From Eledone cirrhosa (lineage: Eukaryota), in NCBI GenBank assembly GCA_964016885.1, contig OZ024743.1, positions 17,856,001-17,920,000 of the forward strand: 64,000 nt of DNA, given 5' to 3'. A model generated the notes under the pieces. It saw nothing but the letters and a program-made list of their open reading frames with translations. It was not told the origin of the DNA and ran no database searches. This document shows, in pieces, positions 17,386 through 56,106 of the stretch (position 1 is the stretch's first letter; each line of letters starts with the position of its first letter). The position numbers were made by a program, and so were the translations under genes.

Positions 17386-17398
17386 TTATATTTATATA

Positions 17399-17780: not shown

Positions 17781-17802
17781 ATAGAGGATATTATTGTGTA
17801 TA

Positions 17803-17990: not shown

Positions 17991-18522
17991 TATTGTGTAT
18001 AGTAAATGAACTGATACTTTTTTCTTCCACGTTCGTTGATAGATGTTTTTAAAAAGATTTATCGGTATTATATTTGTTGTTGAATAAATTTATCTGTTGC
18101 TTTTGAATAATTGTTGTTTCGTATGAAATGTAATAAGTTTTCTTTGTCATTGAGGTAAATAAATGTTTGACCGCTGCACACCCAAAAACAAACTTCCCTC
18201 TCCCTCTCTCACTCTCTCTCTCTCTCTTAAAGTTTGCAAGTTTAATCGTATATCAGAGAAAGTTGCAGCATGTATGTAGTTTTCTTTTACTTTTAAGGGG
18301 AGTAGAGAGAGGTAATCAGATTCTATTAGTGGGGTTAAGCGTCATTAATTTAGTTGTATCGATTATTTCCGTAACTGGTGTTGAGTTTGAATGAATTAAA
18401 TAGTCGTCGACCTAATTTAGACCATTTACAACATTCTAACAGAGACGTTGAGTCGAATTAGTTTGAAATTGTGCAAATGTATAAACATGGAACATGCACA
18501 CACACACAACAACAATCTGCCT

Positions 18523-20189: not shown

Positions 20190-20352
20190 CCTGGAGCTGA
20201 TCGACAGTGATACATATGTGAAATGTTATTAGATATGTTATGATGCAACACTGATTCTTTGTTCCTTTATTCTTATACTATTATATTTTACTCTGCGTGA
20301 GCATCGGGTGCTCACTCGGCATACCGCCTAGGGAAGCACTTTCTTGCACCTA
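20190..20352 (+). mobile_element. Older family-B-like element 3' end with tail
   Basis: gcaacactgattct and tactctgc...gggtgctc...ggcataccgc match 20885-20965. Confidence 0.6.
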
Positions 20353-20370: not shown

Positions 20371-21113
<743 letters not shown>

Positions 21114-21636: not shown

Positions 21637-24240
21637 ATTATTATTATTATTACCATCACTATTGTTCTTTGAGTCTCAGTCATTAATGTTGGTTAACTGG
21701 AAAGTTTGTTGAAATGAATATCAAGCCATTACCTGCAGCCTCAGTTATTCAGGACGTATCGGAGGGTTCTTGCTGTTCCCAGCAAGCATGCCTTTTGAAG
21801 TATTCCAAAAAGCGGGGCGGGAACAATTTTCTTTAACCATCCCTGGAAACTCTTTGAGATAGTACCTAGTGCGCCTATGACAATCGGGACCACTTTGATT
21901 TCATGGCAGTTCCAAATCCTTTTTACCTCCCACTTTAATTCCTGGTATCGGTTAATTTTCTCCCTCTCCTTCTCTTGCACTCTCGTGTCGAATGGGCAGG
22001 CCACATCCACAATCAGGCACGATCATTTTTCTTGTCCAAAACCACCAGGTCAGGTCTATTGTGTTCCAGTTTCTTGTCGCTCTGTGTCCTAAAATCCCAC
22101 AGCACCTTCACCTGATCGTTTTCACCGACTCTGGCTTGTGCTCATACCACTTCTCAGAATGTGGTAAGTTGTTTACTTTGCATAGGTGCCAGTGGATCAT
22201 CCTGCCCATCACATCATGTCTCCAGCCTTTATAGTGAGTCTAGGCTAGGTGTTTACACTCAGATACAATGTGATCCACAGTCTCCTCTCTTTCTCAACAG
22301 ATCCTGCACAGTGGGCTAGCCCCCTCCTTGTAAATATGGTGTTTCAGCCACTTCGTTTTGAGTCCCATCTCTTGCGAAGCCATTAGCATTCCTTCTGTAG
22401 CCTGGTCTCCTCTTTAAGGTCTCCTCTTTTCAACCAGTTCCATGTCTGTGGATCTCTGAATTCAGTTTTCTCAAAGAAGATACTATGAAGGGACTTTTCA
22501 TGAAGGTTGCTCTTTCTCCTTGTTGTTAATTCCTCCTTGGACATCCCCGCGTCCATTGTTCTCTCTTTCAGTACAATTCTGAGCCTTGTCTCCCTACTAT
22601 CAGTCACGTATTCGTGTAGGTTGTTTTTCTCCATCTGAATACAGTCCTCTATGCCGATAAGACCTCTTCCACCTTCAGATCTCCTTAAGAAGAGTCTATC
22701 GACATCACTCCTTTTGTGGAACATGTTGTAGATAGTCAATAGCTTCCTAGTCTTCCTATCCATTTCTATTTCTTCAGTAACATTCCATCTCAGAATTCCC
22801 GCACTGTACCTCATAATAGACACAGCTCGGGAATTTACTGCACGTATGACATTCCTACTGTTCAGATGTGATTTTAATACGCTCCTTACTCTCCGAATGT
22901 ATTCAGATCCTATCAATTCCTTCATTGTTTTTTTCTTGGTGTTATCTGCCTCCAGAACATCCAAATACTTGTATCCTTCTTCAGTGTCAATTACCTTTAT
23001 CATCTCACCTGTTGGTACCTGGATTCCCTTGATTCTGCTCAATTTACCCCTCTTCATCACAAGGACTCCACACTTACTAATACCAAATTGCATACATATA
23101 TCATTGCTGAAAATACGGACAGTGTCAACGAGCACATCCAACTCCTTCTCACTCTTCCCGAAGAGATTAAGATCGTCCATGAAGAGGAGGGTGATTGATG
23201 GTAAGCTCTGCCTTTCCCAACTTGTATCCTATTCTCAATTTCGCAGTATAATGTTCAGGGGCATCAGGGCAAGGACAAACAACAGAGGGGAGAGAATATC
23301 TCCCTGGAATATACCTCTCTTGATCTTCACGCCTCCCAAGGATTCTCCAGCTGATGTTAACTCTGTTTTCCAGGACTTCATACTTTTGCTCAACATATGT
23401 CTTATGTTATCTGCCACCTTGAAGATCTCTAGGATTTTGTTGATTCAAGAATGAGACACCATGTCAAATGCCTTTTTGTAGTCTATCCATTCCATAGCAA
23501 GACCAGTGTGTCTCCTCTTGCTATTCCTCATTACCATCTTATCAATAAGTAACTGGTCCTTTGTATCACGGGACTTATTTCGGCATTCTTTCTGTTCTGC
23601 CGGTAACAAGTCGTGTATGTGGAGGTAATGGTAGATTTCTCAGACACAATGCTTGTCAGCAGTTTCCACATTACGGACAGACATGTGATAGGTCTATAGT
23701 TGGTAACATAACCCTTGATTCGGACTTTCATTACCAGAAATGTGGTACATTTTGTGAACCACTCTGGTACCTCACATGACAGCAAGCAGTCATTGAACAT
23801 GGCTGTCAGTTTCGCGTGGAGGCATGTTATGTTTTTTAATCCAATACTCCTGCACAACATCTGGGCCTGGTGATTTCCAGTTGGTTAATTTTTTGGTCTG
23901 CCCCTTAAGAGTTTTAACTGTGATACTCAAATCAGTTTGTTTGTGTATCTGGCACTAATCTCCTTTTGTACTGTCTCAACCTACACTACCTGGTCATAAT
24001 GTTTAACATCCTGCTCCCATATTCCTCTCCAGAATGTCTCAGTTTGTTCCGCTTCAGGGATCAAGTCGTTGCCTCTTTCTTTCCCTTCAAGCAGTCTAAA
24101 CAACATCTTCTGGTTGTTGTCAAACATGCGGTTCTGTCTATACTGACTGCCTCTGCTCTCGTATCGCCTAATTTTTGCACTCTTTGCTACAATGCGTGTC
24201 TTCAGTTCCTCTATGATAATATTAAGCTTCTTTCCTCCTA
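21637..24240 (-). mobile_element. R4/Dong-type RT-RLE LINE, family A, 5'-truncated and disrupted
   Basis: NYRPITCL, GIFQGDILSPLLF, FMDDLNLFGK, GGRGLIG, then RLE-type DVACPFD...VPIVIGALG; flanked by (TTA)n. Confidence 0.93.
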
Positions 24241-24241
24241 G

Positions 24242-24299
<58 letters not shown>

Positions 24300-24301
<2 letters not shown>

Positions 24302-27122
24302 AGTTGCATTTATCTTGCTTTATGTTCATACGAGTTATCACCAAGTCACAACCACTGACCTCAAGAGACAACAAGGTCCGCCATCTTCAAGAAAGAACAT
24401 ACATACTCACTCATGCATCTTTAGTGTTTAGACTTGTGATGTACTTATATTGACAGAATCTTCCTTAGTATATGGGCAGTTCCCATTAGTACTATCTTTT
24501 GTATTTCTCCTATACGCGGGTTTCCTGGGATTTGCGATAAGTAATCATTAGACCCCTTAGGTATCATTCCCAGAGCGCCTACAACCACTGGTATTGTTTT
24601 AGTTCTCAATTTCCACATTTTTCCAATTTCTATCTCCAGGTGCTTATACTAGCTCAATTTTTCAAATGTTTTTATATATACATTCTTGTCTATTGGAACA
24701 GACATATCAATTAGCAGGCATACCCTCTTTTTAAAGTCCTTCAATATTATATCAGGTCTATTTGCATCTATTTTTCGGTCTGTTTGATGGGTTAAAGTTT
24801 TGTCAACATCAGGATTGTTAGCGCGCTCTGGGTATTTTCCATACAGAGGATTTTCTTGCCATTTCTTAGCCAGTTTCTGTAGCAGTTCTTTCTTTGCAGT
24901 TACTTTTACCTGCTTTGCTTTTTCTGTGTTTTCCATTTCAGCAGTAAATGGGACTTCTGAAATTTGTAGTCCATTACTGTATCTTTGTGCATCTTTTGTA
25001 ATGGAATATGATCTTTTGATGCTTTCGTGTTTCAAAACGAGTTTGATCATCCAATCATCTGATTCCCTTAGATATGTAGATAATCCAATTGTTGCAGTTT
25101 TCAACGCAATGTTTAACTGGATTAACCCACGTCCTCCTTCTTTCCTAGGGAGATATATTCTATCTATATCTGCCTTAGGGTGATGCATTCCGTGCATGGT
25201 TAAGAGTTTTCGAATTTTTGTATCGAGCCTACGGATTTCTGTGCTTGACCAGTTGATGACATTGTAACTGTAGGTTACTACTGGTATGGCAAGCGTGTTT
25301 ATGGCATCGATCCTATTCCTTGCATTCAATTCCGTTCTTAAGATTGCTGTTACTCTGCGTTAACATTCCTTCCTTATCCTTTCCCTCATTGTCGAGTGCT
25401 TGATTCCGTCTCCTTCACAAACACCTAGATATTTGTAAGTTTGTTCTTGATCAAGTTCTCTTATCACGTTCCACCGATCAAGATTAATGTCTGAACTCTT
25501 CAGCAGCTTTCCTCTGGTGAACGTTGCTTTGGCGCATTTATCTAGTACAAACTCCATTTTAATGTCATCACTGAACTGCTCCACAGTGGATAATAGCCCT
25601 TGCAATTGTTCATCATTTTTTGCAAATAGTTTCAGGTCATCCATGTAGAACAAGTGATTAATGGTTTTGTCATAGACTTTATATCCATGTTTTGTTTCAT
25701 TGAGCATTTTACTTAATGGTATAAGTGCGATGCAGAATAAAAGCGGTGATAAAGAGTCAACCTGAAAAATTCCACACTTAATATTAACTTCTCCAGCTTC
25801 CAGTGATTTTGTTTCACTGTTCAAAAGGAGTGTCGTTTTCCATGTCTTCATACTGAATGACAAAAACCTCCTGACAACGGTGGATATTTTGAAAATCTCT
25901 AAACGTTTTTCAATCCAACTATGTGGCAAACTATCGAATGCTTTTTTATAATCTATCCAAGCAATCGATAGATTTTTGTGTCTATTATGACAATCTTCCA
26001 GTATCATTTTGTTAACCAGAAGCTGATCCTTACAGCCATATGAGCCTCGTTTACACCCTTTCTGCTCAATGGGAAATAGGTCATTTGTTATCAGGTGGTC
26101 ATATGTGTATTCAGTTAGGACTGATGTTAACATTTTATACATTGTGGTCAAGCAAGTTATCGGTCTGTAATTTTTGGGATTGTTTGTCTCATCATTCTTC
26201 GGAAGCAGGAATGTAATGCCGTTAACTAGCCATGATGGTATCTTTTCTGGCTCCTTAACTATTTCATTGTAAAGTTGGGCTAACAGCTCATGAGACTCTG
26301 TGAAGGCATTTATCCAAAAGTTTTGTATTTTGTCTTTTCCTTGGGATTTCCATTTGCTGGCTTTTCTTAGAGCCAAGCGCAAGTGTTCAACTGTTATATT
26401 TTCACATATTTGTTCCTCAAGGTGAGCTGTATCTTTCATTTGTCTGTCTATCCATGGGGCATGTACGTTATGAACTTTTTCTTCCGCCCAGATCTTTTCC
26501 CAGAATTCTTGCACTTCCTCTTTGGGTGGTATTGATTTAGCAGTTATTGTTGACTTACCAATTTTCCTGTAGAAGTTTCTTTCGTTGTTTTTGAACATAT
26601 TATTGTCCTTATAGAATCTAGATCGTTTTTCAAAGCACCTTATATGAGCAGCTTTGGCCGACACTTTTTGCTTGATTATTTCTATTAGCATGTCTATGTC
26701 ACTTGTTGATTTTATACTGTACTTTATTTTCAATTTTCTAAGTTTAGTTTTTTTAACCTGTTCACCTACTTTATAGTTTGTTAAAATTTCTATGTCAGAT
26801 CGGAGAAGGTTTATTTGGCGATTGATGTTCTCTTGCCAAGTAGATTTCTTGTGGGAATTCCTTTGTTTTTTCATCTTCACTCCACATAAGTGAGTGGTGA
26901 TTTTAGCCGATGCATAACAGAGATGATTTAAATCAGTAATGTTTAGTTTGTTTGTGATGATACTGTTTTTGAGAATTATGTTATTCTTGTGTATTATCTT
27001 TTGGTTCTGTTTGGAGTTCTGGATCTTAGGGATGGTGTCTCGTTGCCCCATGTCAGATTCTTTCATTTTCATCCATTCGATCATAATTTCAACCTTCAAG
27101 TTGGCAAGTTCATTCTCATTCA
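24300..27122 (-). mobile_element. R4/Dong-type RT-RLE LINE, family B, 5'-truncated
   Basis: Long RT ORF continuing to NRPDIILKD...LIDMSVP (RLE); (TTA)n on both sides. Confidence 0.93.
25360..27122 (-). CDS. Open reverse-transcriptase region of family B LINE (~587 codons; ends at a premature stop)
   Basis: [45 protein letters not shown] and YKYLG. The ORF-track start at 27228 is read-through from the neighbour's UTR and (AAT)n. Confidence 0.85.
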
Positions 27123-27152
<30 letters not shown>

Positions 27153-27155
<3 letters not shown>

Positions 27156-27557
27156 TGTTGCATTTATCTTGCTTTATGTTCATACGAGTTATCACCAAGT
27201 CACAACCAGTAACCACAAGAGACAACAAGGTCCGCCATGTTCAAGAAAGAACATACATATTCACACATGCATCTTTAGTGTTTAGACTTGTGATGTACTT
27301 ATATTGACAGAATCTTCCTTAGTATATGGGCAGTTCCCATTAGTATTATCTTTTGTATTTCTTCTATACGCGGGTTTCCTGGGATTTGCGATATGTAATC
27401 ATTAGACCCCTTAGGTATCATTCCCAGAGAGCCTCCAACCACTGGTATTGTTTGAGTTCTCAATTTCCACATTTTTCCAATTTCTATCTCCAGGTCCTTA
27501 TACTTGCTCAATGTTTCAAATGTTTTTATAGATACATTCTTGTCTATTGGAACAGAC
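27153..27557 (-). mobile_element. 3' fragment of Dong-type family B
   Basis: Near-identical to 24300-24705; translates SKYKDLEIEIGKMW...ILMGTAHILRKILSI. Confidence 0.92.
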
Positions 27558-27585
27558 TATTATTATTATTATTATTGTTGTTATT

Positions 27586-28537
27586 CCTTGAATCTCAGTC
27601 ATTGATGTTGGTTAACTGGAAAGTCCGTTGGAATGAATATCAAGCCACTACCTGCAGCCTCAGATATTCAGGACGTATCGGAGGGTTCTTGCTGTTCCAA
27701 GCAAGCATGCCTTTTGAAGCGTTCCAAAAAGCGTAACGGGGCCGATTTTCTTTAACCATCCCTGGAAACTTTTGGAGAGGGTCCCCAGTGCGCCTATGAC
27801 AATCGGGATCACTTTGACTTCATGGCAGTTACAAATCCTTTTCACCTCCCACTTTAGGTCCTGGTATCGGTTAATTTTCTCCCTCTCCTTCTCTTGCACT
27901 CTCGTGTCGAAAGGGCAGGCCACATCCACAATCAGACACGATCTTTTTTCTTTGTCCACAACCACCAGGTCATGTCTATTGTGTTCCAGTTTTTTGTCCG
28001 TCTGTATCCTAAAATCCCACAGCACCTTCACCTGATTGTTCTCCATCACCACCTCTGGCCTATGCTCATACCATTTCTCAGAGTGTGCTAAATTGTTTAC
28101 TTTGCACAGGTGAAAGTGGATCACGCTGACGTCACATCGTGTCTCCAGTCCTTATAGTGGGTCTGGGCTAGGTGTTTACATTCGGACACAATGTGAGCCA
28201 CAGTCTCCTCTCTCTCTCCACAGATCCTGCACAGTGGGCTAGCCTCCTCCTTGTAAATATGGTGCTTCAACCACTTCGTTTTGAGGGCCTGCTCCTGCGC
28301 AGCCATTAACAATCCTTCTGTAGCCTTTTTGAGGTCTCCTCTTCTCAACCAGTTCCATGTCTGTGGATCTCTAAATTCAGTTTTCTCAAAGAAGGTACTA
28401 TGAAGGGATTTTCCCTTATGCTGCTCTTCCTCCTTGATGTTATTTCCTCCTTGGACATCCCCTGGCCTACTGTCCCTTCCTTCAGTACAGTTCTGAGCAT
28501 TGGCTCCTTACTATAGGTCACGTATTTGTATAGGTTG
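27586..28537 (-). mobile_element. 3' fragment of Dong-type family A (CCHC knuckle plus RLE)
   Basis: CRICGEREETVAHIVSEC...RHD, WDFRIQTD, DVACPFD; homologous to 21660-22625. Confidence 0.92.
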
Positions 28538-28565
28538 TATTATTATTATTATTATTATTATTATT

Positions 28566-31335
28566 GGCGACCTACGTAGTAAATTGTATCATCGTGAGCT
28601 CCGCAAATGTTTGTTGTTTTCGTTTGTTTAAAATTGCGATTTATGGAAAATTAGACGAGGCGCTTAGCAAAGGCATCGCGACCGACGTACTTGTGGCGAA
28701 ATTGGCCCGTGACCAATTATTCAATGCAAAGCACGAAGACTGCGTTGTCAGAGCTAGGGTGCGTGCTCTCTGACACGAGCGGACGAAAGCCGTTCAATTG
28801 GCCCGAGTGGCGGAGGCGCGTCGTGGCAACAAAGACACGATCAGGTCTTTGGTGGCACACGACGGGCGAAATGCTACTCGATCCATTGCAAATGTGTGAA
28901 GCTTTTCAGCGACACTTCGCACAGCTGTTAGGAGGCAGCGGCGTAACGGATGGAAGGATGGAATTTAGTGTGTACCTGGACGGACTGCCGCGGCTCTCGG
29001 CCACTGAGGCGAAGTGTTGCAAAAAGCCGTTAACAGCCGCCGAAGTACGGGGGGCAATGACTGGCTGCACAAGGGGTAAATCGCCTAGTTTGGATGGTCT
29101 GCCCTATGAACTTTACGTACAGATGCCAGACTTGCCCGGAGGCCTCTTGGGGCACGTCTACTGCAACTTTCAAAAGAACGGGAGAATTTCCCAGCTCTGT
29201 GAGCCGAGGAGCTGTGGCGCTTCTGAGAAAGGATCCGAACAAGGGGGATAACATAGATAATTTTAGGCCCATAACTCTGCTAAACACAGAGTTCAAGATT
29301 TTGGCCAAGGTGCTAGCAAATAGGTTGGCGCTTCTCGTTGGTGGCTGGTGGGAGAGGCGCAGACATGCGCCAATCCCGACAGAACCATCCACGACAACCT
29401 CTATCTCATGCGATACATCGTAGAGAGAGTAGCTAGGGAACCTCGCACGGGTAGGTCCTTGATCAATTTAGATCAGTCGAAAGCTTTCAATAGGGTCTAC
29501 CATCGTTACCTAGCGGCAGTCCTGGGGGCGGCTTGATTTGGGCCCTTCTTCAGAGGCTGGATCGCTGCCATGCACAGCGACATCTACTCTTTGGTGAGAG
29601 TGAACGGTCACTTTTCGGAACTGTTCAACATCATGCGCTCAGTCCGCCAAGGATGTCCCCTCTCCTTACTTTTGTACGTATTGACTCTCGAGCCATTACT
29701 GCACAAACTGGAGACGTTGAGGAGGATCCCGCGCGAACTAGAATGCAGAAGATCTGTGTCAGCATATGCGGACGATGTCACCGTAGTGGTGTCGAATGCC
29801 AAACACATCGAGGCGATCGGCAATACATTAAGAGAATACGAAGCGGTGACAGGAGCAATGATCAACCAGTAAAAGTCACTGGGCCTGCAGCTCGACACCT
29901 GGAGTGGCAGGTCCATGCCGTCTAATAGCGTCGTCGGGCGCTGGACGGACGGATCGGTTAAATTGCTAGGGTTATGGTTCGGTCCGGACCTCTAGACGGA
30001 CAAAAACTGGGACGAGGTGTCGAGCAGGGTGGCTTCTCTCACCCAGAAATGGGCGGAGAGGAAGCTATCCCTGAAAGGTCGAGCGGAGGTGGCTAAGGCG
30101 TACAACGCGTCCGTCATCTACTACCACCTGACCGTCGTACTTTGTCCTAAGCCCCGCCTGACTGCGCTGGAGCGCTTGCTCTTTTGCTTTTTGTGGAAGG
30201 GACGCGCTCCGATGGCCAGGTGGTCCATCTGCTGTCAACACCCAGTACGTGGAGCGCTGGGCATGCGTGGCTGATGATGTGCAGACACGCGCTCAAGCTA
30301 CGACATCTGCACTTCTTCCTCGAGGGTGATTAGGTGTGGTCGCCGTTTGCTAGACACGTCTTTCTCCAGCTCGTCTCCTTGACGGAGCTGCAGTCCTGGG
30401 TCAAGCGAAGACCGAGAGGGAGCGCTTGGTGACTGGAATATCTTCAGGCGCTCACAGCCCTCGACCAATCGGGCAATGTGATCGGTGGAAACTCCACCTT
30501 GGGGTTCTATAGAGGATTAGTGAATGGGAAGAGCGACGACGTACTTGGAGAAACTCTAGGCGTCGACGAAAATCAACTAGACAATCTCTTCTGAAGGACT
30601 TTCGGGCCGGGTCCTATGGACAACTTCTAGAAATCCCTGGACTGCTAGTGTTACCGAGGACCTTTGCCAGTTCGGAATAAAGCCTACAGGCATGTAGGTG
30701 CCGTCAGACGGGCATGTCCGAGATGCGCGCAAGGCGACGAAACCGTCCTGCACGCACTCGTCCAGTATCCGAGCATTCCTGACTTGTGGGTTTATATCGA
30801 CTACCTGCTGTCGCGTGAGGATTGCCCCGCCCTCTTCCTTCAACCGGGAAGGGCAGGCAGGTTTTATCTGTATGGTGGCCATTATGAAAGAAATAGTAAT
30901 GTGGACACGTTTGAAAGGGCTGAAGACGAGCACTTACCTCTTCTGTGATGTCCTGATTAACTTTTTCAAATTTCATTTGAAAAGGAAAATCAGTGTAGAG
31001 AGGGAAGTGCTCTTTTCCCAGCATTTTCTGGAAAGATGGGTGAGAGAGGCAAGAATGGCCCGAGTACTCTGAGTATGTGTCTGTAAATTAAAGGTGGAAC
31101 ACTGGGAGAGGGCCCTTCCCCTGGTGGTCAGGGTCACTGTGGCTTTTTAATGGGCTTTCTCCACGAATGTCCCTCGGAAGTCTGCCCGTATTGGGGATTT
31201 TTCATTGTTATTTTTTTGTTACATCCTCTGTTTTTGTTTTTTACACGCAAAAATGCACATTTGTACCGTCCTGTATTGTCCTGTATTGTCCTTAATGTCT
31301 ACTTTATGTAAACCCTTGTGGTTAATAAGGAAAGC
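28566..31335 (+). mobile_element. L1/Tx1-clade LINE, 5'-truncated and disrupted
   Basis: KSPSLDGLPYE, NFRPITLLNTEFKILAK, LDQSKAFNRV, RQGCPLS, YADDVTV and CPRC..ETVLH; related to the 9690-11682 copy. Confidence 0.92.
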
Positions 31336-31844
31336 ATTATTACCATGAATTCCATGAAATAATATTTGAGCCTGATTTATTTCTGTTAATTATTATCTCA
31401 TTAGTGGTACTTTCAGTTTTCTACATTAAATACTGGGCATCAAGTTAAAGTTAGGAAAAATATATCCAGGTGTGTTACTAAATTTGACATATGTTGATAT
31501 TAAAATCATTATTCATTGAAAATGTCTAAGGAGAAATGAATATAGAAAACATTTTTTTTTTAATCTCTTCATACAATTTATTAAATAAAGTAAGATATTT
31601 CGTAATCCTGCTGAATGAAATCATACGTTACAAAAATCCAATCATTGGTGCGAAATTCACTTTCATTTGCTGATCAAATATTTAAATGTTTAAATTCCCA
31701 ATAAATATATTAATTTTTAATTAAAATCGATAAAATGTGTGTGCTAAAATTAGTTCAACACAAATAAGTTCTTCATATGTGGTTGGAAAAAGAAAAGGTG
31801 CAATGGTTTCAAAATACAAATGGATGTCTCCAAATCTACCTTGA

Positions 31845-32027
31845 AATAATTGTTTCTACTTTAGGCACAACACCAGCAATCACCAAGTGCATTACTGGTA
31901 CTTTATTTGATCGACCCTGTAAGGATGAAAGGCAAAGTCTATCTCGGAGGGATTTGAACTCAGATCGTAAAGGAACGTAACTATGCTGGAAAGCATGGCG
32001 TCCGATCCTCTACCGATACTGCCAATC
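31845..32027 (-). mobile_element. SINE copy
   Basis: Homologous to 17803-17990. Confidence 0.9.
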
Positions 32028-34877: not shown

Positions 34878-34972
34878 TAGGAACCAGTAAGACCCCGACA
34901 GCTGAGCTCAAGCCGTTTCGACGGCTAGGTGCGTTATGGTCCACCTGGTTCCTTACCACATTTCCTTCGTTA
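34878..34972. mobile_element. Internally collapsed family C fold-back element
   Basis: The first ~50 nt match the inverted arm start at 38111 and join directly to the distal tail (compare 38515-38558); (TA)n on both sides. Confidence 0.8.
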
Positions 34973-37528: not shown

Positions 37529-37591
<63 letters not shown>

Positions 37592-37594
37592 AAA

Positions 37595-37720
37595 AACACT
37601 GGAAGGTAATATCCGTAGTGGTAGAGCATTCAGTCCATGGGACGAGTTAGGTAGAAGTGGTAACACAACAGTTAGTTAACCATACCGAGAACAATTATTT
37701 CACCTTAGCGGATCCTCAGG
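37595..37720 (-). mobile_element. Family D hammerhead plus tail
   Basis: The minus strand reads CUGAGGA-UCCgcuaaGGU-GAAA-uAAUUGUU-CUCGG, followed by sequence matching 55151-55182 and then 56036-56098. Confidence 0.8.
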
Positions 37721-37841: not shown

Positions 37842-38097
37842 TTCAGTTAACGAGGTATATTTTAAGGCACTCCAAGTAGAGTATATGAGTACTCTGTATC
37901 GAGGATAGTTCTAACGTTCGGCGTTGTTTGACTCAACAAGAAATTGTGGTATTCTGGTTGCCGATTCCAGACAGTTGCTACGTAAGCAGTTGCTGGAGTA
38001 TTAATTAAAAAGGAGTAAAGAATAACATGGATAGGCTGTAGAGTCGGGTTTATTCCCTACTGTACAGCCGATACGTGTTATTATTCACTCTTCTATT
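37842..38097 (-). mobile_element. Family H Penelope-like 3' end with degenerate hammerhead
   Basis: Homologous to 42614-42830; GAGTACTC at 37887; (TA)n on both sides. Confidence 0.65.
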
Positions 38098-38110
38098 ATA
38101 TATATATATA

Positions 38111-38556
38111 TAGGAAAAAGTATGACCATGACGGCAGAGCTCAAGCCGTTTCGACGGCTATTTCTGGACTAAAGTAAGTGTTTTTTTAGCCTGGTAAATA
38201 AATAGCCGAACTTTTCAAGGGTACTTCCTTATAAGGAAATATTGTAGTTATCGTTAGGGGGTTTGCATGCAGTTACCAGTTCGTCTTTTTTGTTGAGGAG
38301 TTGATCCTTCGTAAAAAAATGTTGACCAATCCCCTTGACAACTACAATATTTCCATATAAGAAAGTACCCTTGAAAATTTCGGCTATTTATTTACCAGAC
38401 TAAACAAAACTCTTACTTTAGTCCAGAAATAGCCGTCGAAACAGCTTGAGCTCTGCGGTCGGAGTCATACTTTCTCCTATTACCCACTCTAATACACTAA
38501 GTATTGAGTAATTTGGTGCGTTATCGTTCATCTGGTTACTTACCACAATTCCCCCG

Positions 38557-38602: not shown

Positions 38603-38747
38603 AGGGTTGAGGGACCTACCATGTTTATCAATGCCAGTACCGATTGTATCTCAGCGCACTCAATGGACAATGTAAAATACATTACCAGCGTAAACACATA
38701 GTTATTTGCCTCAACACAACACACGTAAATTGGGTGCCTATAAGGTT

Positions 38748-40446: not shown

Positions 40447-42519
40447 TCGACGACTCTATTTGGATAAAAAAATCCAATAGTACCCTATTCGACGTGTGTA
40501 TGGGCGCCAGCGATTCTGCGGAGATTACTGATCTTATCGGCCTTTTACTTCTTTTCTCTATCAAGGACGAATTCCCCAACGCGGGCGGTGGTTTGTACCG
40601 TGATGATGGTCTTTTGACCATGACTAAGTGCGGCCCTCGTGCTTGCGACAGGTTCAGAAAATAACTCACAGCCTTCTTTAAAGGCTTCAACCTCTCTATA
40701 CAGGTTGAGGCCAATCTCTCGGTCGTTAATTACCTCGACGCAGAGTACGAAAATGGACCTAGAAGAAATAGATCCCGTCGCATTTGTTGGTATAACCCAC
40801 CATATAATATGGAGGTGGCCACACCTTTAGCTAAGATCTTTCTTTCCCTTATTACGAAGTATTTTCCCCCTACACATAAATATAGTAACATTTTTATTAG
40901 AAATACTATTAATATTTCTTACACTACGACTCTTAACCTTGCACATACCATCACAACTTGAAATGTAGCTAAACTACCTAGCCGTAGGAACACGTGCAAA
41001 CCTGTAGTTAGTACTAACTGTAATTGTAGGAATCGGGTTGATTGCCCCTATCCGGGAAATGCCTCTCCAGTAACATAGTCTACAAATGTAAGGTTGAAAC
41101 ACCCACGTCCCTTAGGGCCCACATAGGGTTAACCGCCAAGAGATTCAAGCAGCGTATTGACATGCATACCCATTCTTTTCGTTACCCTCTAAGAAGGAAT
41201 ATGACGTCACTTTCAGCTTATATCTGGAGTCTAAAAGACAACCACACCCAATATAAGTTACACTAGGAGATCTTAGCTAGGGCTAGATCGTATAACGGAA
41301 ATAAAAGACCATGTGATCTCTGCGCCGCTGAGGCCCTGGAAATGCTCTACGCCACAGAACACATCTTGAACAAAATATCCGAGGCAATTTTGGCTTGTAA
41401 ACATAAATTGCACAAAACTTTCCTGTATTACAGCCCCACGTTATACCCTAACGGATAGTACGATCTATACGTGGCTATTTTACGTCTTGATATGGTAGCT
41501 AAGTATATGTTTTGTTTATACCATTACTTATTTGCATAGGTAAGTATATATTACTTGTATGTTTTGTGAGGGTACGTATACTTTCTCGTACGTATATTTG
41601 ATTGTATATGTTATGGCGTATATTTTTATATATATTCTGGTTCATATGGTTTGATATGTGTATACGGGAGTTTTGCGTCTGTGTGAGTATGTAGGTTCTT
41701 TCGTATGTAGGGTGTGTGTATATGTGTACTTCATGTTTTGGTTGACTTACGTCTCCGAACATTTGTGTATTTACATATAGGTATGTGTGTGCGCTTGTTA
41801 TATACGTATTTATTTATTTATATACGTTTATTTAAGTATTTATTTATTTATATACGTTTATTTAACTATTTATTTATTTATATACGTTTATTTAACTACT
41901 TATTTATTTGTATACACGCACGCACGCACACACATATTTATATGTGCGTAGTTTAGTATACCTATGGCAAGTGTTTTCGCGTATGCTTGTGTATGTACGT
42001 TTTTGCATGCGTGTATGTATTTATTTAATTTCTAATACCTCTGTTTTGTATTTTACTTTATTCTTAACTCTGAAGCGGAGATTAATTCGGTTTCCTAGTT
42101 AGAATTTTAGTCTACGACGTCAGCTATACCGTTTACGTGGTTTTGTCTTTGCGTGCAATTTTTCTCCATGGTCCACATATGACGTATGATCTTCGTTTTT
42201 TCAGATCATTGCCAGAGAACGTCTCTATTAACCACCTAAGAGAACTTTAGTCTACGACTTCTTTTATACCATAAATGTGGTTCTGTCTTTGCGCGTAATT
42301 GTTTTTCACCGATCCTATTAATGACGTATTGTATTCGTTTTTTTTCCGTTCTTTGCCAGGGAACGTTTCCACGGACCAAAGTATCTTCTTCCTGTCTTCC
42401 TCCGGTTGCAACGTTTTTTTAAATATCCACTTCTGCGTTTACATATTGACATTTGTTAGTTTCAGAAGATCCCGTTAAGGTTGAAAGCAGCGATTCTTTG
42501 CTTAAACTTTAATCTGTTA

Positions 42520-42613: not shown

Positions 42614-42616
<3 letters not shown>

Positions 42617-43683
42617 GATAGCAAGTTATCCTTATAGGTAATCAAGTTAGAGGTTGTGAGTACTCTGCGTCGTGGATAGTTTTAACGTACGGCTTTGTTA
42701 GACTTAAGAAGATGCTTCCATAGTTATGCACCGAGTTCGCGGTAGGTTCTATGCAGGTTATATTTGGAGTAATAATATTGAAAGAATGAAGAGTAACATG
42801 TTTGGCTCTACAATAAGGGGCTTTATTTAAAGTACTGACAATTTTTTCTTTGATCAGGTGAGTCTAGAGTTGCGTCACTCGATCTCCAATACATTATTTA
42901 CCTCTGGTCAACACATCAGAGTACGTAGATATAAATTCACGAGACATATATAGAAAAGTAGCGTATAATCAAAACAATAACATCAATAATAAAACATATA
43001 TGGTAAATAGGTAGAGAAGTTAGAGACGTAAAAAGTAAAAAGTAAAAAGTAAAAGATAAGATAGGGTACATTAAAAAAGTAAGAAAATGAGAAAATGGAA
43101 AATATAAAGAAATAAATAAGGATAAGTGAGAACATGTAGGTATCTAGAATGTTTGTAGTAGTTTTGAGTAAGTGTCCTTATAAGGATTCCTTGGTGAGTT
43201 TAGTGATAACATGGAAAACCATATTCGAGATGTACATTTGGGAGTGCTGGTTTAAATCATGGTGGTTTGAAGATTGTGAATCTGGTAGCTGTTCTATGCC
43301 TACAGAAAATTGATCTTTCTATTTTGCTGTTAAGCAGCATCATACCTTAAAATATGTAGTAGTTCTAAATTACAAAGTCCGCCGTGAGACATTGCGCTGC
43401 TGTAGGCTCTTGCTATCGATAATCTTGACCCGCTAATCTTATATTCCAGGTTTTTGTTTTTAAGCTGCCAGATTCTATTGGCGAGCGTCGTAGAGGTCTC
43501 CAGTCTACGGTTCTTCATGGAGTGTCTCCCCAGCCGTGGAACCTATGTAGTGCCAAGTAGGGTTGCCTGAATTTACAGTACTCAGGTATACCAACTCGAA
43601 TCCAGCCATCTATTCCATAGAGGGCACTTATCCGATAGCTGGCAATTACAAGGGAGTTCAAGAAAAAGTTGTACGTCCACAGA
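42614..43683 (-). mobile_element. Penelope-like 3' fragment (GIY-YIG + UTR, family H end)
   Basis: CNCQLSDKCPL...HYIGST...TTLANRIWQLK...ARAYS...GLCNLE; degenerate hammerhead at ~42833-42893; GAGTACTC at 42658. Confidence 0.8.
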
Positions 43684-46600
43684 CATGAGTGGTCAAGAAT
43701 CGTACACGTCACCGGTATTTCTAGCCACTCATGGTTGCCCACTTCTTGATTCTTCTCGTTCTCCACCTGTCAATCAAAATTTCTTCATATATGAGAATTA
43801 CTACTGTGGTGGGAGAGGGGCTGTAATCTGAAACAGCTGGCATAACTTCGACGTCTTCATTGCCCCTAGGTACATTAGTCTACATCGGCCAGGTACACAC
43901 CCGCAATTATGCTGTATGCGGCATTCATCATAAATAATGTTTTGTGGGAATGTTTTTAAAAACAAATCGTAGGGATATTTAGCATAACATTTGTAGGACA
44001 CAGCCTCAGAAAACCCTCCACTTTATATATTTCAAAAAGAAAAAGAAAAAGATAAAACATGTATTAAGAACGTTTTTAAAAACGTGCTTGAAAGAAAGCT
44101 TTCAACAGCCATTCAAACAGAAAGCCTGTATCAAAGGTGTGTTCAACAAATACACCCAATTCTACACTCACACACTGGACTCAGGGAGCGTGCATAGCCA
44201 AGACGCCGCCAATATATAGACAGATGAGAAAAGAAATATCGATGGAAAGACATCCGTACCCCCAAGCATACATGCTCAGACAAATACATCGACCCAGGCA
44301 TGCGCACACCCGTGCTCATGCATGTCTGTGTGGACACACATACATACATGCACCCGCGTGGTCCCACATCGGAGGCATATACTTGATGAGTAGCCCCTCA
44401 TCCTTTTTCTCACGCGCCGCTGCGGAGATGGTGCACACACTATTGTATAAGACAACGCATTTGAGGCATCGGCCAAAGCCGATCACGTGGCATGTGAGTC
44501 CGAAGGTGCCTGAACAATATGCCTAAATGTTACGGCAGCACCATATCCATGCACTAATCGCATATAGCGTGGGTGGCACAAATATAAAAAAAAACATGTA
44601 CGTACATAACATAAAATAATGAAATAATATACAATAATTGTTTCTACTGTTGGCACAAGGCCAGCAATTATCGCAGTGTATTACTGGTACTTTATTTTAT
44701 CGACCACGTAAGGATGAAAGATAAAGTTAACCTCGGCCGATTTAGAACTCAGAGCCTAAAGGGCCGTAACTCTTTGCTGCAAAGCACGGCGTCCGACACT
44801 CTACCGATACTGCCAATCCACAGGCGTAATAATATACAATAATTGTTTCTACTTTAGGTACAAGGCCAGCAAACACCAGTTCATTACTGGTACTTTATTT
44901 TATCGACCCCGTAAGGATGAAAGGCAAAGTCAACCTCGGCGGGATTTACAGAAAAAGATAAAATACAATAAAATAAATTGCTGGAAAAGGAGAATGCATA
45001 CATGACAAGCATGCAGATGGGTGGGTACCGGGCATTATCGAGGTGTGAGTAAAGTTGAATACAATAGTTGGGGGCTGTGGCGAAAATGTTTATATGATAT
45101 AAATAGGGGTTGGTGGTGTAAGGCACTGGGTAGGAGCCTGCATATGATGCAGGTCTCGTTGCTTGTGGATAGATGTGGACCGTGCGTGCGTGCACAAACA
45201 TGTTATATATATTGTGGTTATGCGTAACATCCATTTCATAAAAGAATACATGAAATGTGCATGGGTTTGATGTAGTATACATGGAATATAAAGGGTATGT
45301 GTTTCATAACATTATATATGGAATGCAGGTGGAGTGTATGTATGATTGTAATGTGCCAGCGACAGGCGTTGTATGCGTGTGTATATCAGCGGCATGCAAC
45401 GACAAAATTAAAACTTGAAATCAAAATTAAAACTAAAATTAACATTACAATTAACTGCGACATTAATGTTATAGATAGGATACTGCCCATGCTTATAAAT
45501 AGAAATAGCTTATGGAATTCAACTAAGGAGCTAATAGACTGGTTTACAGCGCTGCCCACCAAACAGCAAGTGAACTTCGTGCAGCTGGACATAGCAAATA
45601 TCTACGCCTCTATCTCACTGGTAATTGTAAACAAGGCCCTCATGGGCGCTATGATAAGGTCCAAGTTAACTAGAGGTGAAGTGGACATGATTATAGCTGC
45701 TAGAAAGACACTCATTAAGTTTGACGGTAGACTGTGAGAAGGAGAGACAGACTCGACAGTTTTGACATCACCATGGTGACGGACATGGTGGGAATTTATC
45801 TACTCCATAGGTTAGCAGAGGCGATTCCATAGATAGGCGGAGTGATATATAGGGACGACGCCTTATTTACCTTCCGCTCATTAAATTCCATCCAGCTGGA
45901 GCGCATACGGAAGCGCATCTCACAACGCATATAGATTTGAGGGAGAATGGGAACCCTAGGGACCACAACACATATGGACTGAACAGTAGTAACTCCACGG
46001 ACCAGGATGGGCAAACCATAGATAGTAAAGTAGATAACGCAGCACGGAGCTTTAGGGGTAATACCAAGACTAAGAATACCAGCAATGATACGCCAGGATG
46101 CTCGGGTAGCAGGACAGGGACGGAAAATAGGACTAGCAAGCGTGCCCAGAACAATTTAGCGAGAAAGGCCATTCCACAGACTTCACTAACAGTTTTATGC
46201 ATATGGATAGAATGGGGTTCAATTAAGAGTAGGTCTTAACCCGAGAGAGCAGCTTGACAATGCAAGCACTACTAGTAGCAGAACGACGACATAGAAATAG
46301 ATCTAGAAAAATAACATGGTTTAAGGCACCATACTCGAAGCATGTAAGCACTAACGTGCCAAGTCTCTTCAGGGCATTGGACGAGTGTTTCCCGGCTTCA
46401 CACAGGTACCACAACATGTTCAATCGGCACAGCGTGAAGTTCTCATTTTCCACGGCACCCAACATGGCAGACTCCATGGCCAGGGACAACGCATTGAAAT
46501 TGAGGTGATCCCACGGGCGCAACGATTAGGCAGCAAACCCGCCGGGGTGGGGAGGCTGCGCGGAGAGCACGCGGTGGTGGCTGATGGTTCTCGGCATGTG

Positions 46601-48979
46601 ACTGGGGGCTGAGCCGCGGCTGCGGAGGGCCCCATAACTTCCAGCAGAGATAGCTGATGGTGAACATTGAGTCCGCCACTCCGCCGAAGCACCACTCGAG
46701 GACCGGCGAGAACACAAATATGTCGCGAGGACCTCGTAAAGGGAGTTGCAAAAATGATGCACGGACTTGTAATTGCCGTGTCCGTGAGGAGTACCCCCTG
46801 CAGGGAATGTGCCTGACTAAGAGCCTTGTCTACAGATGTGCGGTTACCACGCATAACGATAGGCACACATACAATGGAGCTCCATCCACCACTTTTAAGT
46901 TGAGGATATACAACCACAAGAGCTCGTTCAAGGACAGGAATAAGAGGCACAGCACGAGATTGGCGGACTTAGTATGGAGAGTCAAAGCCAGTGGCATGGA
47001 ATATGACCTCATCTGGAGTATTGTACAGCATGTGAATGCGTAATCGGCCGGAGACAGAAAGTGTAAGTTATGCTTGTCCGAGGCTATAGAGATAGTAAAA
47101 CTTAAGGGCGACGCAGTCAACCCACGTCTGGAATAATCATGCTATGCAGACACAATCGTAAATGCACACTCTCCGCCCTAGTGATACCGGATGTATCTAC
47201 ATAGCGCACCACCGGCACCGCAACCCCAGGTGTGCGCATGAAGAGTATCACCATAGAACACTGCATAACTATGAATGCATGACATCACAAGCTGATAGCA
47301 ATGACAGATCCAACGTTGCCTACCTCGTAGAACATCATAATAGCACCACCACACCAATTTCAGGACGCCGACCCATTATAAGTAGGATTGGTCTACAAAC
47401 ATTATGTGTGGTTTTAAATGTTCAAATTTCTAAATTTTCAAACTTTAAGATTTTTAAATTTTTGATTTCCGATATTCGATACGTGGTGTTTAATTCGCTA
47501 CTTGGATGTTGGACATGATGCTGGTCTTAATGTTAATGTCGCAGTTAATTGTAATTTTAATTTTAATTTTGCTTTCGAGTTTTAATATTGTCGTTCCATG
47601 CCGCTGATATACACACGCATACAACGCATGCCGCTGGCACATTACAATCATACATGCTCTCCACGTGAATTCCATATATATTGTTATGAAACACATACCA
47701 TTTATATTCCATGTATACCTCAAACCCATGCACATATTATATATACTTTTATGAAATGGATGTTATACATAACCACAATATATATAACTTGTTTGTGCAC
47801 GCCCCCGCGGCCCACATCTATTTCACAGGCAACGAGACCTGAATCATGCGCAGGCTCCCAACAGTGCCTTAGACCACCAGGCCCCATGTAAATCATTTAA
47901 ACATTTGCACGACAGCCCCCAAATATTGTATGCAACTTTACGCACACCTCGATAATGTCCGGTACCCTTCTGCATCCTTGCCATGTATCTATTCTCTTTT
48001 TTCAGCATTTTATTTTTATTGTATTTTATTTATTTTGTTTTATTATTGTATATTATTTCATTATTTTATGTTATGTACATACAGTTTTTTTTTATATATA
48101 TGAGCTACCGACGCTATATGCATGGATATGGTGCTGCCGTAACATTTAGGCATATTGTGCAGGCACCTCTCGGACTCACACCGCCACGTGATCGGCTTTG
48201 GTCAATGCCTCAAACGCGTTGTCTCATACAATAGTGTGTGCACCATATGCGCAGCGGCGCGTGGGAAGACGGATGAGGGGTTGCTCATCAAGTATATGCC
48301 TCCGGCGTGGGAGCACGCAGGTGCATGTATGTATGTGTTTCCACACAGACATGCAAGAGCATGTGTGTGTGCATGCCTGGGACAATGTATTTGTCTAAGC
48401 AGGTCTGCGTGAGGGTACGGATGACTTTCCATGGACTTTTCGTTTCTCATCTGTCTATATATGTGCGGCGTCTTGGCTATGCGCTCTCCTCTAAGTCCAG
48501 TGTGTGGGTGTAGACTTGGTTGTATTTGTTGAAAACACCTTTGCTATAGCCCTTCTGTTTGAAAGACTGTTGAAAGCTTTCTTTCAAAAACGTTTTTAAA
48601 AACGTTCTTAATACATGTTTTTCTTTTTCTTTTTCTTTTTGAAATATGTAAAGTGGAGGGTATTCTACGGCTGTGTCCTACACATTTTATGCTAAATATC
48701 CCTATGATATGTTTTTTTTTAAATTCCCGCAAAACAATATTTATGATGAATGCGCATAATTGCGGGTGTGTACCTGGCCGATGAAGACTAAGGTGCCTAG
48801 GGGAAATGAAGATGTCGAAGTGATGCCAGCCGTTTCAGATTACAGCCCCTCTCCCACCACATTAGTAATTCTGATACATGATAAATTTTGATTGACAGGT
48901 GGAGACGAGAGGATCAAGAAGTGGGCAACCATGAGTGGCTATAAATGCCGGTGACGTGTACAATTCTTGACCACTCATG
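43684..48979 (+). mobile_element. Penelope-like element with ~1.45-kb inverted repeats
   Basis: Arms 43684-45471 and 47528-48979 are reverse complements. Between them are RT remnants (FVQLDIANIYASIS, FDITM, IYRDDAL, RKITWFKAPYS) and GIY-YIG (CNCR..PLQGMCL..LVY...FKLRIYNH...CKLCLSE). Confidence 0.9.
44623..44947 (-). mobile_element. SINE tandem dimer in left inverted arm
   Basis: aataatatacaataat at 44623 and 44828; the dimer is absent from the right arm (~48040). Confidence 0.9.
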
Positions 48980-49037
48980 GAATGATGACAACATGATCTA
49001 AATCAACAAACGAAGAAATTCGATATTAAAGGACAAT

Positions 49038-49324
<287 letters not shown>

Positions 49325-49451: not shown

Positions 49452-50803
49452 CATTTGTTTTCATATGATTCTGAGCATAATCATACGTGATTTGCTTGTG
49501 ATGTGTCCTGCTACATAAATATATTCATGGGCCTTTCATTTCCCTTTTTAGCTCATCAATAGATATATTGATACCAGCAGTGTTAAAATACATTGGTGTT
49601 TATTAAACATCTCAATATGTCGATGTTTGACTGCACATGGAAGTTTGTTCTATGTATTGAATGCAGTATCATCGAACTATTAAAATCTACCGATAATTAT
49701 TTTACATTTACATTTTTTGTTTTTATTTGCTTATTGTATTACCCTTCAAGTGACACGCAGTGCATACTTTTATGTATATTATCGGCTGTTTTAGTGCAAT
49801 ATATCATTTAATTGCAGTAGAATTAATTGAAGTGAAATGATGAAAAGAAGCATCCTTAATTAAATAATAGATTTTTTTATTGTAATATATTAGGTAGAAA
49901 AAAGGCCAATAGAACTTCACCACATAGTGTTCATAGCTAACAGCTACGCACCTGAAATGAAAACATTATAAACATTTAAATATGATATTTATTGAGTTTT
50001 TCATTATTGTATTGTGGGATGTAAATAATTTATATATAAAGATAGATCCTGCAGAGTGGAGATGGTGGTTGAAATATATACCGTTTAACAATGAATAAGG
50101 AAAATCTGTATATCAATTTACGAATACTTTATATATGTAAACATTCCGAATAAAATTAATTCCTTGAAAATTGAAAAAGATTTTAAAGATATGTATCTAG
50201 ATTTTCAACTAAATACGGCATATATGATATGTCAAATCCAATAAATCACAAGCAAATATGCAAGTAAGGGTATATTATAAATTATTCTATATCACGTGCA
50301 TAGTCATGAATTTGCGTGATCCTAACCGAGCAAGCTTATGTATGGCTGTATATGCGCTCACATGTGACTGAAATGTGTACACGTATACATGAATGCGCAT
50401 GTACTTTTGTGTGCCATTGTTTATGTGTATGTATATATGTGTTTATGTGTGAAGGTTTGTTAGTATGTGCGGAGCCAAGGGCATTGGTAGATGACATAAT
50501 GGCAAGGTTCATTCATCAGCAACAACCACGACAAATACAATGGCAATGAGAACAGCCAACAGTAGCATATCAAACACGACGTTGACATGCTCAAATAGCA
50601 CAATGACGATACCGACGACACCAACAACAATATCGCTACAGCCTATGTAACTGATACCTGATGATTGGGTAGAATGTGTGTACTTGTGTTATGTAACGGG
50701 TAACGGCCTCATAACCACAACCACGGATCCACCGATTTGTGCATACTAAACACCAATTGTAAGGCCTATGGAATCACATATTATATATATATATATATAT
50801 ATA

Positions 50804-51190
50804 TACGATATTAAATAAATGGAAACTATATTTATAAAACCATATCTATTTCATTATATATATTTCAGGGATATCATATTAACAATATGTTATGCCTTCT
50901 TCAGACAAAATACAATATAGACAGTTTTATAGATAAATAGATTTGACATACCGGTATGTCAAATCTATTTATCTATAAAACTGTCTATATTGTATTTTGT
51001 CTGAAGAAGGCATAACATATTGTTAATATGATATCCCTGAAATATATATAATGAAATAGATATGGTTTTATAAATATAGTTTCCATTTATTTAATATCGT
51101 AAATATACTCCAAATACTTGTTGAGTGCTTTTATATCAGTTATAAATATTTACTAGTTGTAACCCAACAATTTAAATATAACTTTCCATA
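50804..51190. mobile_element. Family A element: 298-bp palindrome plus tail
   Basis: 50804-51101 is self-reverse-complementary about 50952/50953 and holds two opposed hammerheads (CUGAAGA at 51001). Tail 51102-51190; (TA)n on both sides. Confidence 0.92.
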
Positions 51191-54869: not shown

Positions 54870-55110
54870 GAAATTTTGACCAATCTTCTTGACAACTATA
54901 ATCTTCCCATAAGAGGAAGTACCCCTTGAACAGTTCGGCTATTTATTTACCAGGCTAAACATTCTAATTTAGTCCAGAAATAGCTGTCGAAACGGCTTGA
55001 GCTCTGCCGTCGGGGTCATACATTTTCCTATTTCCCACTCTACTACCCTAAGTATTGAGTACTCTGGTGCATTATGGTCCATCTGGTTTCTTACCACAAC
55101 TCCTTCGTTA
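54870..55110 (+). mobile_element. Family C direct unit with hammerhead and tail
   Basis: ACCCC-UUGAACA-G..CGGCUAUUU/AAAUAGCUG..C-GAAACGGC-uuGAGCUCu-GCCGUC-GGGGU at 54921-55016; GAGTACTC at 55057. Confidence 0.85.
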
Positions 55111-55148: not shown

Positions 55149-56101
55149 TAGAAGTGGTTACACAACAGTTAGTTCACCATAACAAGAACAATTGTTTCCC
55201 ATTAGCGGATCCTCAGCTCGGAATGGGCATGGTTATAGGAACAGGAAGGACAATCGTACGAAGGCGAATGCGCAGAAACCCGGTCAATTCACACAGGCAA
55301 TACTAGACTGCGTGCGAGAGGTGTAAGGGAAATAACTGAGAAAGTCCGAAAAGTTTTTAGGTTGAAAATAAAATTACAGAGAATCAGTCCGGAGCCTTGT
55401 AGTTATGCAACAGGTGTTTGGCGACGTGTGGACAACGTGTGAAAATTCATTTCTCCTGTTTAGGCAATCACTATTGCGTAATTTCTTTAGAATAATTATT
55501 CTTTCGTCAATGCATAAGCCACTCGTCGGATTTCCCCTTGCTTATGGCTTGGACGTAGTGATGGCTTTCCATTGAATGGAGTAGTCTATACTTGAGTCCT
55601 TGAGGGACCATACGTGGCTCGCGAGTTTCGTGGATGAACGTCTGTCCGGGTACCTGAAGGTAGACTGTTGGTTCAGGAAACGTCCCTTAAATCGGAACCT
55701 CCAGCATGCCCACATAGGATTTGACCTCCTGTGGTTCGTTTGGTCGGTTGGAAGTGACCACAGCTTCATAAATTACAGCTGGTGTGTTGCATTGCTGTTG
55801 AAGGGGGCAAGCTTCAGGCTTGCGGCAAGAGCACCATGCTGGGGTGTTGCTCCTAGGGCTGCTGGTGATGTGTGCCTTCATGTTCTTCGGGCAGGAGTAT
55901 CCTAGTTTAACTTTGTGTCGGTTAAAGATGGAGCGGTATTTATGACATATGGGAAAGTGTTTATCTAAGAGGGCTAGACATTGTTTTCCTACATTAGTTT
56001 TAATGTTGAGTGAGAAGGGAGAAGAGAACCAGATATTCTACCTAACTCGTCCCATGGACTGAGTGCTCTACCACTACGGATATTACCTTCCAGTGTTCCA
56101 C

Positions 56102-56106
<5 letters not shown>
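55149..56106 (-). mobile_element. Penelope-like GIY-YIG fragment with family D hammerhead and inverted tail
   Basis: CSCRKPEACPLQQQC...VIY...YVG...FKGR...LASHVWSLK. Hammerhead CGAG-CUGAGGA...GAAAC-AAUU-GUU-CUUG at 55183-55220. The tail lies on the + strand at 56036-56105. Confidence 0.85.

Follow-up and report, generated by a model that had tools for sequence, protein, structure and literature searches.

What is the short motif that recurs at a nearly constant distance past the breakpoints of inserted elements in a 64,000-nt stretch of Eledone cirrhosa DNA (assembly GCA_964016885.1, contig OZ024743.1, positions 17,856,001 to 17,920,000 of the forward strand; hereafter the window)? The motif, ACTC followed by GAGTRCTC, is shared by several element families, and the original prediction regarded it as a cis-signal, either a palindromic DNA site read by a GIY-YIG nuclease or an RNA hairpin switch that positions the reverse transcriptase (RT). 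We found it to form the 3' half of a bulged hairpin, predicted at the RNA level, that lies in the tail of Penelope-like elements (PLEs) of the Hydra clade, which target (TA)n. In related elements the hairpin is present twice between a hammerhead-like motif and the start codon, and we propose, with a probability of roughly two in three, that each copy anchors the RT-endonuclease and that reverse transcription begins at a UA lying a few bases to its 5' side.

All eight 8-mers that had been listed were found where they were reported, and in families A–D the upstream ACTC was confirmed at 51107 (A), 20921 and 20290 (B), 55037 (C) and 56045 (D). The breakpoints of these four families were fixed by tail-less copies; that of the second B copy (B2) has no independent basis. 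From the last base common to the tail-less copies to ACTC, we counted 5 nt in A, 3 nt in B, 5 nt in C and 4 nt in D, or 6–8 nt in A–D when the shared TA, which precedes the hairpin at all four breakpoints, is counted as target, and GAGT starts 21–26 nt past the breakpoint. These values support the idea that several families have kept a signal whose distance from the breakpoint is fixed. The family C breakpoint is constant throughout the genome: 254 contigs, and raw reads numbering 3541 and 3387, pass from the element into (TA)n at 55031. A common layout was observed at A, B1, C2 and D1, consisting of (TA)n, an inverted element end, in most instances also a direct copy, a one-sided extension and (TA)n again, and the tails in the window are 64–86 nt long.

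Relatives of these elements were taken from metagenome contigs as 78 loci, the best of 549 confirmed there, which form 50 families at 80% identity. Among the 53 loci (36 families) having at least 130 nt after the 3' ribozyme pattern, GCTC...GAGCRCT was present in 33 (28 families); the hairpin descriptor, which was drafted after those loci had been inspected, matched 2/53 on the reverse strand, 0/53 in windows of the open reading frame (ORF) and 15/2650 shuffled sequences. Most of the 20 loci missed by the descriptor stop before the hairpin position, often in TA-type repeats, as judged by eye; three carry one mismatch and two are false ribozyme matches. A search by sequence only gave 109 matches; 18 of these, linked to no ribozyme and no ORF start, were dropped, and the rest were collapsed to 53 non-redundant copies with the architecture RCUC, variable inner stem, U-led 2-nt bulge (TT in 33 copies, TC in 11, TA in 9), GAGY and RCUNU.

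The four outer pairs of this hairpin were demanded by the search and are uninformative alone, whereas covariation in the inner stem is independent of the descriptor. The first inner pair was kept in 53/53 copies, as C-G in 39 and U-A in 14 (shuffled mean 42.7; 0/5000 shuffles), and inner pairs 2 and 3 were kept in 39/53 and 37/53 (shuffled 21.9 and 19.3). This pairing needs the 2-nt bulge, and bulges of 0, 1 or 3 nt yield nothing comparable. On an alignment of 51 of the 53 copies (one cut by a contig start and one duplicate were left out), the covariation score was 0.321, compared with 0.118 for shuffled and at most 0.112 for slid alignments, values of a kind that kinship may inflate, and RNAalifold returned the same fold. 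The outer pair is G-C in all 53 metagenome copies and A-U in A–D. Together with the mapping of insertion ends described below, the covariation supports the part of the original prediction in which an RNA hairpin likely positions the RT, the hairpin itself being predicted; the proposed RNA switch was not supported, as an alternative fold was seen for B2 alone.

The same alignment bears on whether GAGTRCTC could be a palindromic double-stranded DNA site for the GIY-YIG nuclease. The form in families C and H, GAGTACTC, is a perfect palindrome, and symmetric GAG..CTC arms occur in 26/51 related copies; however, the 8-mer is self-complementary in only 2/51, the position after RCT is free (C 27, T 12, G 9, A 5; n=53) and is followed by T in 52/53, and such a site would leave the covarying inner stem and the bulge unexplained. 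The DNA-site explanation is therefore largely refuted, and we give it hardly any weight. The 8-mer was also considered as an RNA dimerisation palindrome formed via G-U pairs, an idea that fits the five A–D variants and was rejected as it fails in 49/51 related copies.

The position of the hairpin in full-length relatives is new here: two hairpins stand just before the ATG in 20 of 23 full-length 5' ends. These 23 are the ones with at least 200 nt upstream among 30 ORF starts examined, and of the remaining three, two carry one hairpin and one carries none. In 25 pairs, hairpin 1 and hairpin 2 are spaced by 55–74 nt, and the ATG lies 14–31 nt after the second GAGC. We then compared other copies with 28 twin-hairpin junctions and obtained 32 divergence points, 13 of which fall 2–8 nt before a hairpin, three before hairpin 1 and ten before hairpin 2 (binomial tail over all 32 points 1.7e-6, the points not being independent). 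TA is present at –9 to –3 of the hairpin in 50/50 cases, a few of which are perhaps target TA, compared with 26, 14 and 20 of 50 in control windows further upstream and 11/51 downstream. Copies end before hairpin 1 or before hairpin 2; therefore, the tail is the spacing between the two hairpins.

The closeness of hairpin 2 to the ATG would also suit hairpins that serve translation or RNA stability in the 5' untranslated region (UTR), with the insertion ends due only to pairing of the (TA)n primer with an AU-rich stretch, and an AT-rich stretch does lie ahead of each hairpin. The control windows, which contain TA in 14–26 of 50 cases without any pile-up of ends, and the narrow end-to-hairpin distance at both copies argue against this, and we consider this explanation very improbable.

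Several single loci showed departures from, or additions to, the usual arrangement. L109 (179–212 and 2665–2698) has a single hairpin before the ORF, and its 3' copy diverges just past the hairpin, breaking the twin pattern. In L085, two different full-length Hydra families, both with twin hairpins and a tailed end, face each other tail to tail on either side of a single (TA)n run. L051, L057, L063, L067 and L089–L094 form a sub-clade with an extra unbulged RCTC/GAGT stem about 35 nt before hairpin 1 (by eye), which lies between the ribozyme and hairpin 1 and is possibly a third, degenerate copy. At 34880–34970 of the window, in a short family C insertion, the tailed piece starts directly 3' of the conserved flank of hairpin 1, as though copying from site 2 had halted at an occupied hairpin 1 (one case).

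In the mechanism that we propose, the endonuclease would nick (TA)n, and the 3' end thus released would base-pair with the UA of the RNA; each hairpin would bind the protein and thereby keep the nicked target end in place on the UA immediately to its 5' side. Initiation before hairpin 1 would produce the tail-less end, that is, the breakpoint, and a start before hairpin 2 the tailed end; starts at both sites on opposite target strands would yield a head-to-head insertion with one tailed end, as observed at A, B1, C2 and D1. The hairpin in use would stay uncopied, and hairpin 2 would therefore be found only at internal junctions, with a tail equal to the spacing. In this scheme the hairpin would act as RNA and bind the protein. 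For one Poseidon element, RT is known to start at two internal sites that bound the tail and extension takes place on both target strands, and a dimer is predicted for its protein (PMC11167929). A more specific version, to which we grant somewhat less than even odds, is that a start signal duplicated in the RNA leaves the tail as its footprint: a protein dimer on the two tandem hairpins of one transcript would prime both (TA)n strands from two UA sites, so that the inverted insertion with its single tailed end would arise in one step.

These end positions, like the invariant UA, are also compatible with an RNA-processing signal: the transcript would be cut at the UA 5' of each hairpin, whether by the protein, by a host nuclease or through weak self-cleavage, and would then be primed at its 3' end in the ordinary way; the conserved core is compact and its conserved 3' flank unpaired, which would suit such a signal as well. 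However, the Poseidon protein initiates internally on uncut RNA, with a product unaltered by 3' extensions (PMC11167929), and no Rfam family matched. We therefore regard cleavage before priming as unlikely, at roughly one chance in ten.

The hairpin was sought in the window with covariance models. The first of these, R1, was built from 51 metagenome copies and is free of window sequence; its top window matches were A (E 1.6e-4) and C1 (E 2.3e-4), and C2 scored E 2.2. When A and C1 were added to give model R2, C2 scored E 0.52 and D1 E 2.5, and B, F and H were still not recovered. A simple hairpin descriptor, written after the tails had been seen, gave six matches on both strands of the window, five of which are these tails, and B1, B2 and D1 are matched by it. 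Among viral contigs, protein scans found nothing, and a pattern scan returned 37 stretches, several of them tRNA-like by eye and not one adjoining a TA run of more than 12 nt; as a negative control, the best R1 match among these 37 was E 0.29. The Rfam scan of the window returned microRNA-like matches only, all below the gathering score.

A number of observations weigh against anchoring of the RT by twin hairpins. The R1 scan of the window, up to E 10, did not report B1, B2, D1, F, H1 or H2, and D, where the first inner pair is G-C and the bulge a single nucleotide, differs from all 53 metagenome copies. Hairpin 2 was not seen for any window family, the loose ends listed for the family C tail end being (TA)n only. 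The 78 loci stem from one query and hence are mutually related, and the A-U outer pair perhaps represents a single event in a tree that lacks resolution at this point. One hairpin was found upstream of the ORF start in L109 and none in L110, and 19 of the 32 divergence points lie elsewhere than before a hairpin: 14 of them are cross-family matches that stop with the conserved ribozyme (by eye), and the other five are same-family divergence points at 21, 27, 30, 65 and 86 nt. The start site of the Poseidon element is reported as non-homologous to its target and lies in a different stem-loop (PMC11167929), and the published Hydra-1_Obim consensus, in the material of PMC8557442 covered here, lacks a clean hairpin copy (by eye). 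Finally, the two strands fold alike, the outer stem forming in 51/51 sense and 48/51 antisense folds.

This last point favours an account in which the hairpin is read as single-stranded DNA, either cDNA or an extruded cruciform, and the GIY-YIG endonuclease cuts a fixed few bases away, so that the intermediate is resolved into one tailed and one tail-less end. It has been suggested that the tail results from endonuclease-mediated resolution (PMC8557442), and earlier work cited in PMC11167929 found the D. virilis tail to be needed for plasmid cleavage by the endonuclease. On the other hand, the insertion is bounded on both sides by element 3' ends that join (TA)n outward, the arrangement expected from priming, the end point carries TA in every one of the 50 cases above, and both tail borders of the Poseidon element are RT start sites in vitro (PMC11167929). 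Cleavage of folded DNA thus appears improbable, if marginally less so than the RNA-processing signal, and anchoring of the RT-endonuclease on RNA remains the reading that we prefer.

The assignment of the window elements to the Hydra clade of PLEs is made from sequence. The clade is defined by features that include a CxCX5C linker and the absence of CCHH, and its members also have hammerheads and (TA)n targets (PMC8557442); the assignment follows because the CxCX5C linker in the family D ORF (CSCRKPEAC) and the domain layout of its relatives fit this published definition. The protein encoded in the inverted body of D is truncated, and 2682 relatives of it were obtained at E values no higher than 0.001; a word-based homolog search for longer proteins found none, and a full HMMER search found them. 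Full-length relatives combine RT with a GIY-YIG at the C terminus in one ORF, with internal CxxC absent, their RVT_1 and GIY-YIG matches being weak and under Pfam's curated cut-offs, and the consensus of their alignment (A1) has the CxCX5C linker, lacks CCHH and has CxxC and CxH flanking conserved E and N. Remnants of the RT plus GIY-YIG ORF were located in the window by tblastn with relatives at 55422–56067, 45507–47133, 40449–41446 and 43336–43662. Insertion into (TA)n, inverted ends and a one-sided tail are present as for Hydra-clade PLEs, and hammerhead-like cores with GAAA were recognized in A, B, D and F (pattern, by eye), with a deviant core in C, none found in H and no hammerhead match in Rfam. 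Family B is tied to a Hydra ORF by adjacency, and A, C and F, which have no linked ORF in the window, are assigned by layout, hammerhead-like cores and the hairpin. Trees of the linker and endonuclease, which contained no reference PLE clades and the second of which was run in quick mode, left the window families unplaced on long branches. Neptune-clade identity was rejected, the required CX2-5CxxC linker and CCHH both being absent, and no Neptune loci in which to look for the hairpin were found.

In family A, hairpin 1 (51107–51131, plus strand) consists of ACTC at 51107–51110, the inner stem, a TT bulge at 51121–51122, GAGT at 51123–51126 and GCTTT, and the 86-nt tail runs from the breakpoint to (TA)n at 51102–51187 (plus strand). 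It follows head-to-head inverted body ends (50798–51101) with a hammerhead-like core on the plus strand (CTGAAGA at 51001, GAAA at 51039; pattern, by eye; no Rfam match). In family B, hairpin 1 of B1, with a TC bulge (20921–20950, plus), lies in a tail at 20918–20993, is unmatched by R1 and R2 and is preceded by a hammerhead-like core at 20780 with GAAA at 20849 (plus); the B2 hairpin (20290–20314, plus) has GGGT with a U-G wobble, and its minimum-energy fold is the alternative hairpin. A decayed Hydra-type ORF (45507–47133) with a long 3' region (45507–49200 in all, plus) has a tail-less end at the B breakpoint. It is part of a Hydra insertion of about 5.5 kb at 43684–49200 with long inverted arms, a tandem resembling short interspersed nuclear elements (SINEs) at 44627–44948 and a second hammerhead-like motif near 48776–48830, in which GAAG replaces GAAA (by eye).

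In family C, hairpin 1 of C1 (55037–55065, plus) lies in a tail at 55032–55108, with a hammerhead-like motif at about 54920–55016, and C2 has a decayed hairpin (38486–38514, plus) after inverted arms at 38110–38480. Family C itself has GAGTACTT in about 34% of contig depth, a further point against a palindromic DNA site. Common hairpin variants in the reads (>4%) sit at two loop bases, the second bulge base and the free last base; also above 4% are two C>T changes, one at 55038, where a U-G pair remains, and a rarer one at 55062, which falls in the 3' flank. The D1 hairpin, with its 1-nt bulge (56045–56069, plus), lies in a tail at 56041–56104 and follows the inverted body of family D (55151–56037, minus), which carries a 5'-truncated, frameshifted Hydra-type ORF with the CxCX5C linker and a GIY-YIG region and, at its 3' end on the minus strand, a hammerhead-like core at 55216 before it ends at the breakpoint into (TA)n. 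In a second D copy (37570–37719, minus) the body end is joined to the tail in native order, and 91 contigs give the native join too.

For families F and H, the original claim fared less well, being partly supported for F and not supported for H. The F motif was found with a ribozyme core and a longer hairpin, ACGC replacing ACTC (by eye): the candidate (38653–38691, minus) has the ACGC 5' arm, a long inner stem and a TT bulge, is unmatched by R1 and R2, and has a hammerhead-like core upstream at 38853 (minus; by eye). In H, the 8-mer is there, 51–52 nt from (TA)n on the minus strand, but hammerhead core and 5' arm are both absent; three by-eye readings of it as a hairpin were tried and none fits both copies. 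These two copies, at 37843–38096 and 42615–43662, share roughly one end point in (TA)n, and GAGTACTC is placed 51–52 nt inside; an endonuclease remnant lies at 43336–43662 (minus); neither a hammerhead nor a clean hairpin was found in the family. Outside families A–H, the window contains a palindrome of two ~80-nt copies around a (TA)n run (17184–17481), decayed RT copies resembling long interspersed nuclear elements (LINEs) at 22383–28541, 9674–11421 and 29349–31065 (Pfam RVT_1 on 25363–27240 and 9667–10281), and an abundant SINE-like family of about 200 nt, at times in tandem pairs (3874–4118, 13022–13423, 17790–18003 and 31844–32027).

Structured RNA fixes the point at which an RT begins or stops in hepadnaviral epsilon, the 3' stem-loop of L2/CR1 LINEs and SINEs, the R2 3' UTR and the telomerase template boundary. 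Epsilon is a bulged hairpin that is present twice and primes from its bulge with a protein primer, in LINEs the stem-loop is situated 5' of a start that is terminal, and in telomerase the boundary marks a stop; unlike these, the Hydra hairpin lies 3' of a putative internal start and would not be copied from that start. The ACTC/GAGT or GCTC/GAGC stem followed by RC resembles a tRNA D-arm, from which it differs in being bulged and in having a variable inner stem where the D-loop would be. An origin from a tRNA, a tRNA-derived head or a D-arm was rejected, with 0 genes found by ARAGORN in the window and no tRNA match in Rfam. The closest likeness is to PAc (Poseidon; PMC11167929), with starts downstream of a hammerhead, two sites that bound the tail, an AT-rich target and a stem-loop near the start. 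However, PAc has one AC-rich stem-loop inside the ORF and no RCUC/GAGY in the letters of Fig. S1B (PMC11167929), whereas the Hydra hairpin is conserved in sequence, duplicated in the 5' UTR and placed 3' of each end point, with a UA that matches (TA)n.

The tail, the two starts and the ribozyme are already in print (PMC8557442, PMC3846280, PMC4209133), the published Hydra-clade tail being 30–40 bp (PMC8557442) compared with 55–86 nt here. The Hydra consensi of PMC8557442 that were inspected carry the motif unremarked: of six inspected by eye, three have a clean hairpin, one has variants, one stops short and one lacks a clean copy, and in the supplement Hydra-1_Ajap has a clean hairpin twice at its 5' end (by eye). 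The words 'hairpin', 'stem-loop' and 'palindrom' are absent from the main text of PMC8557442. In its supplement, 584,000 characters including Naiad and Chlamys consensi, six 9-mer forms gave eight matches (line breaks may hide some), four at Hydra ends and four in non-Hydra sequence without the 5' arm (by eye). Neither the hairpin nor its duplication is described in Rfam or in the literature searched, a scope that excluded subscription papers, Repbase notes, the 2004 D. virilis study, figures and bioRxiv supplements, and the motif is undescribed in the sections of bioRxiv 10.64898/2026.07.22.740005 and PMC7229834 that were covered.

PLEs are the closest relatives of telomerase RT, and how they choose two internal starts and produce inverted, tailed insertions is an issue for which one element has been studied in vitro (PMC11167929). 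Our finding supplies a clade-wide, covarying, predicted RNA element at a fixed distance from both sites, and twin hairpins would give a simple explanation of the long-puzzling PLE tail and of its length. The hairpin should also be useful as a marker for the boundaries of Hydra elements and for their non-autonomous derivatives. If the more specific, one-step version is true, internal reverse transcription into (TA)n would become programmable for any RNA by means of a portable element of about 35 nt.
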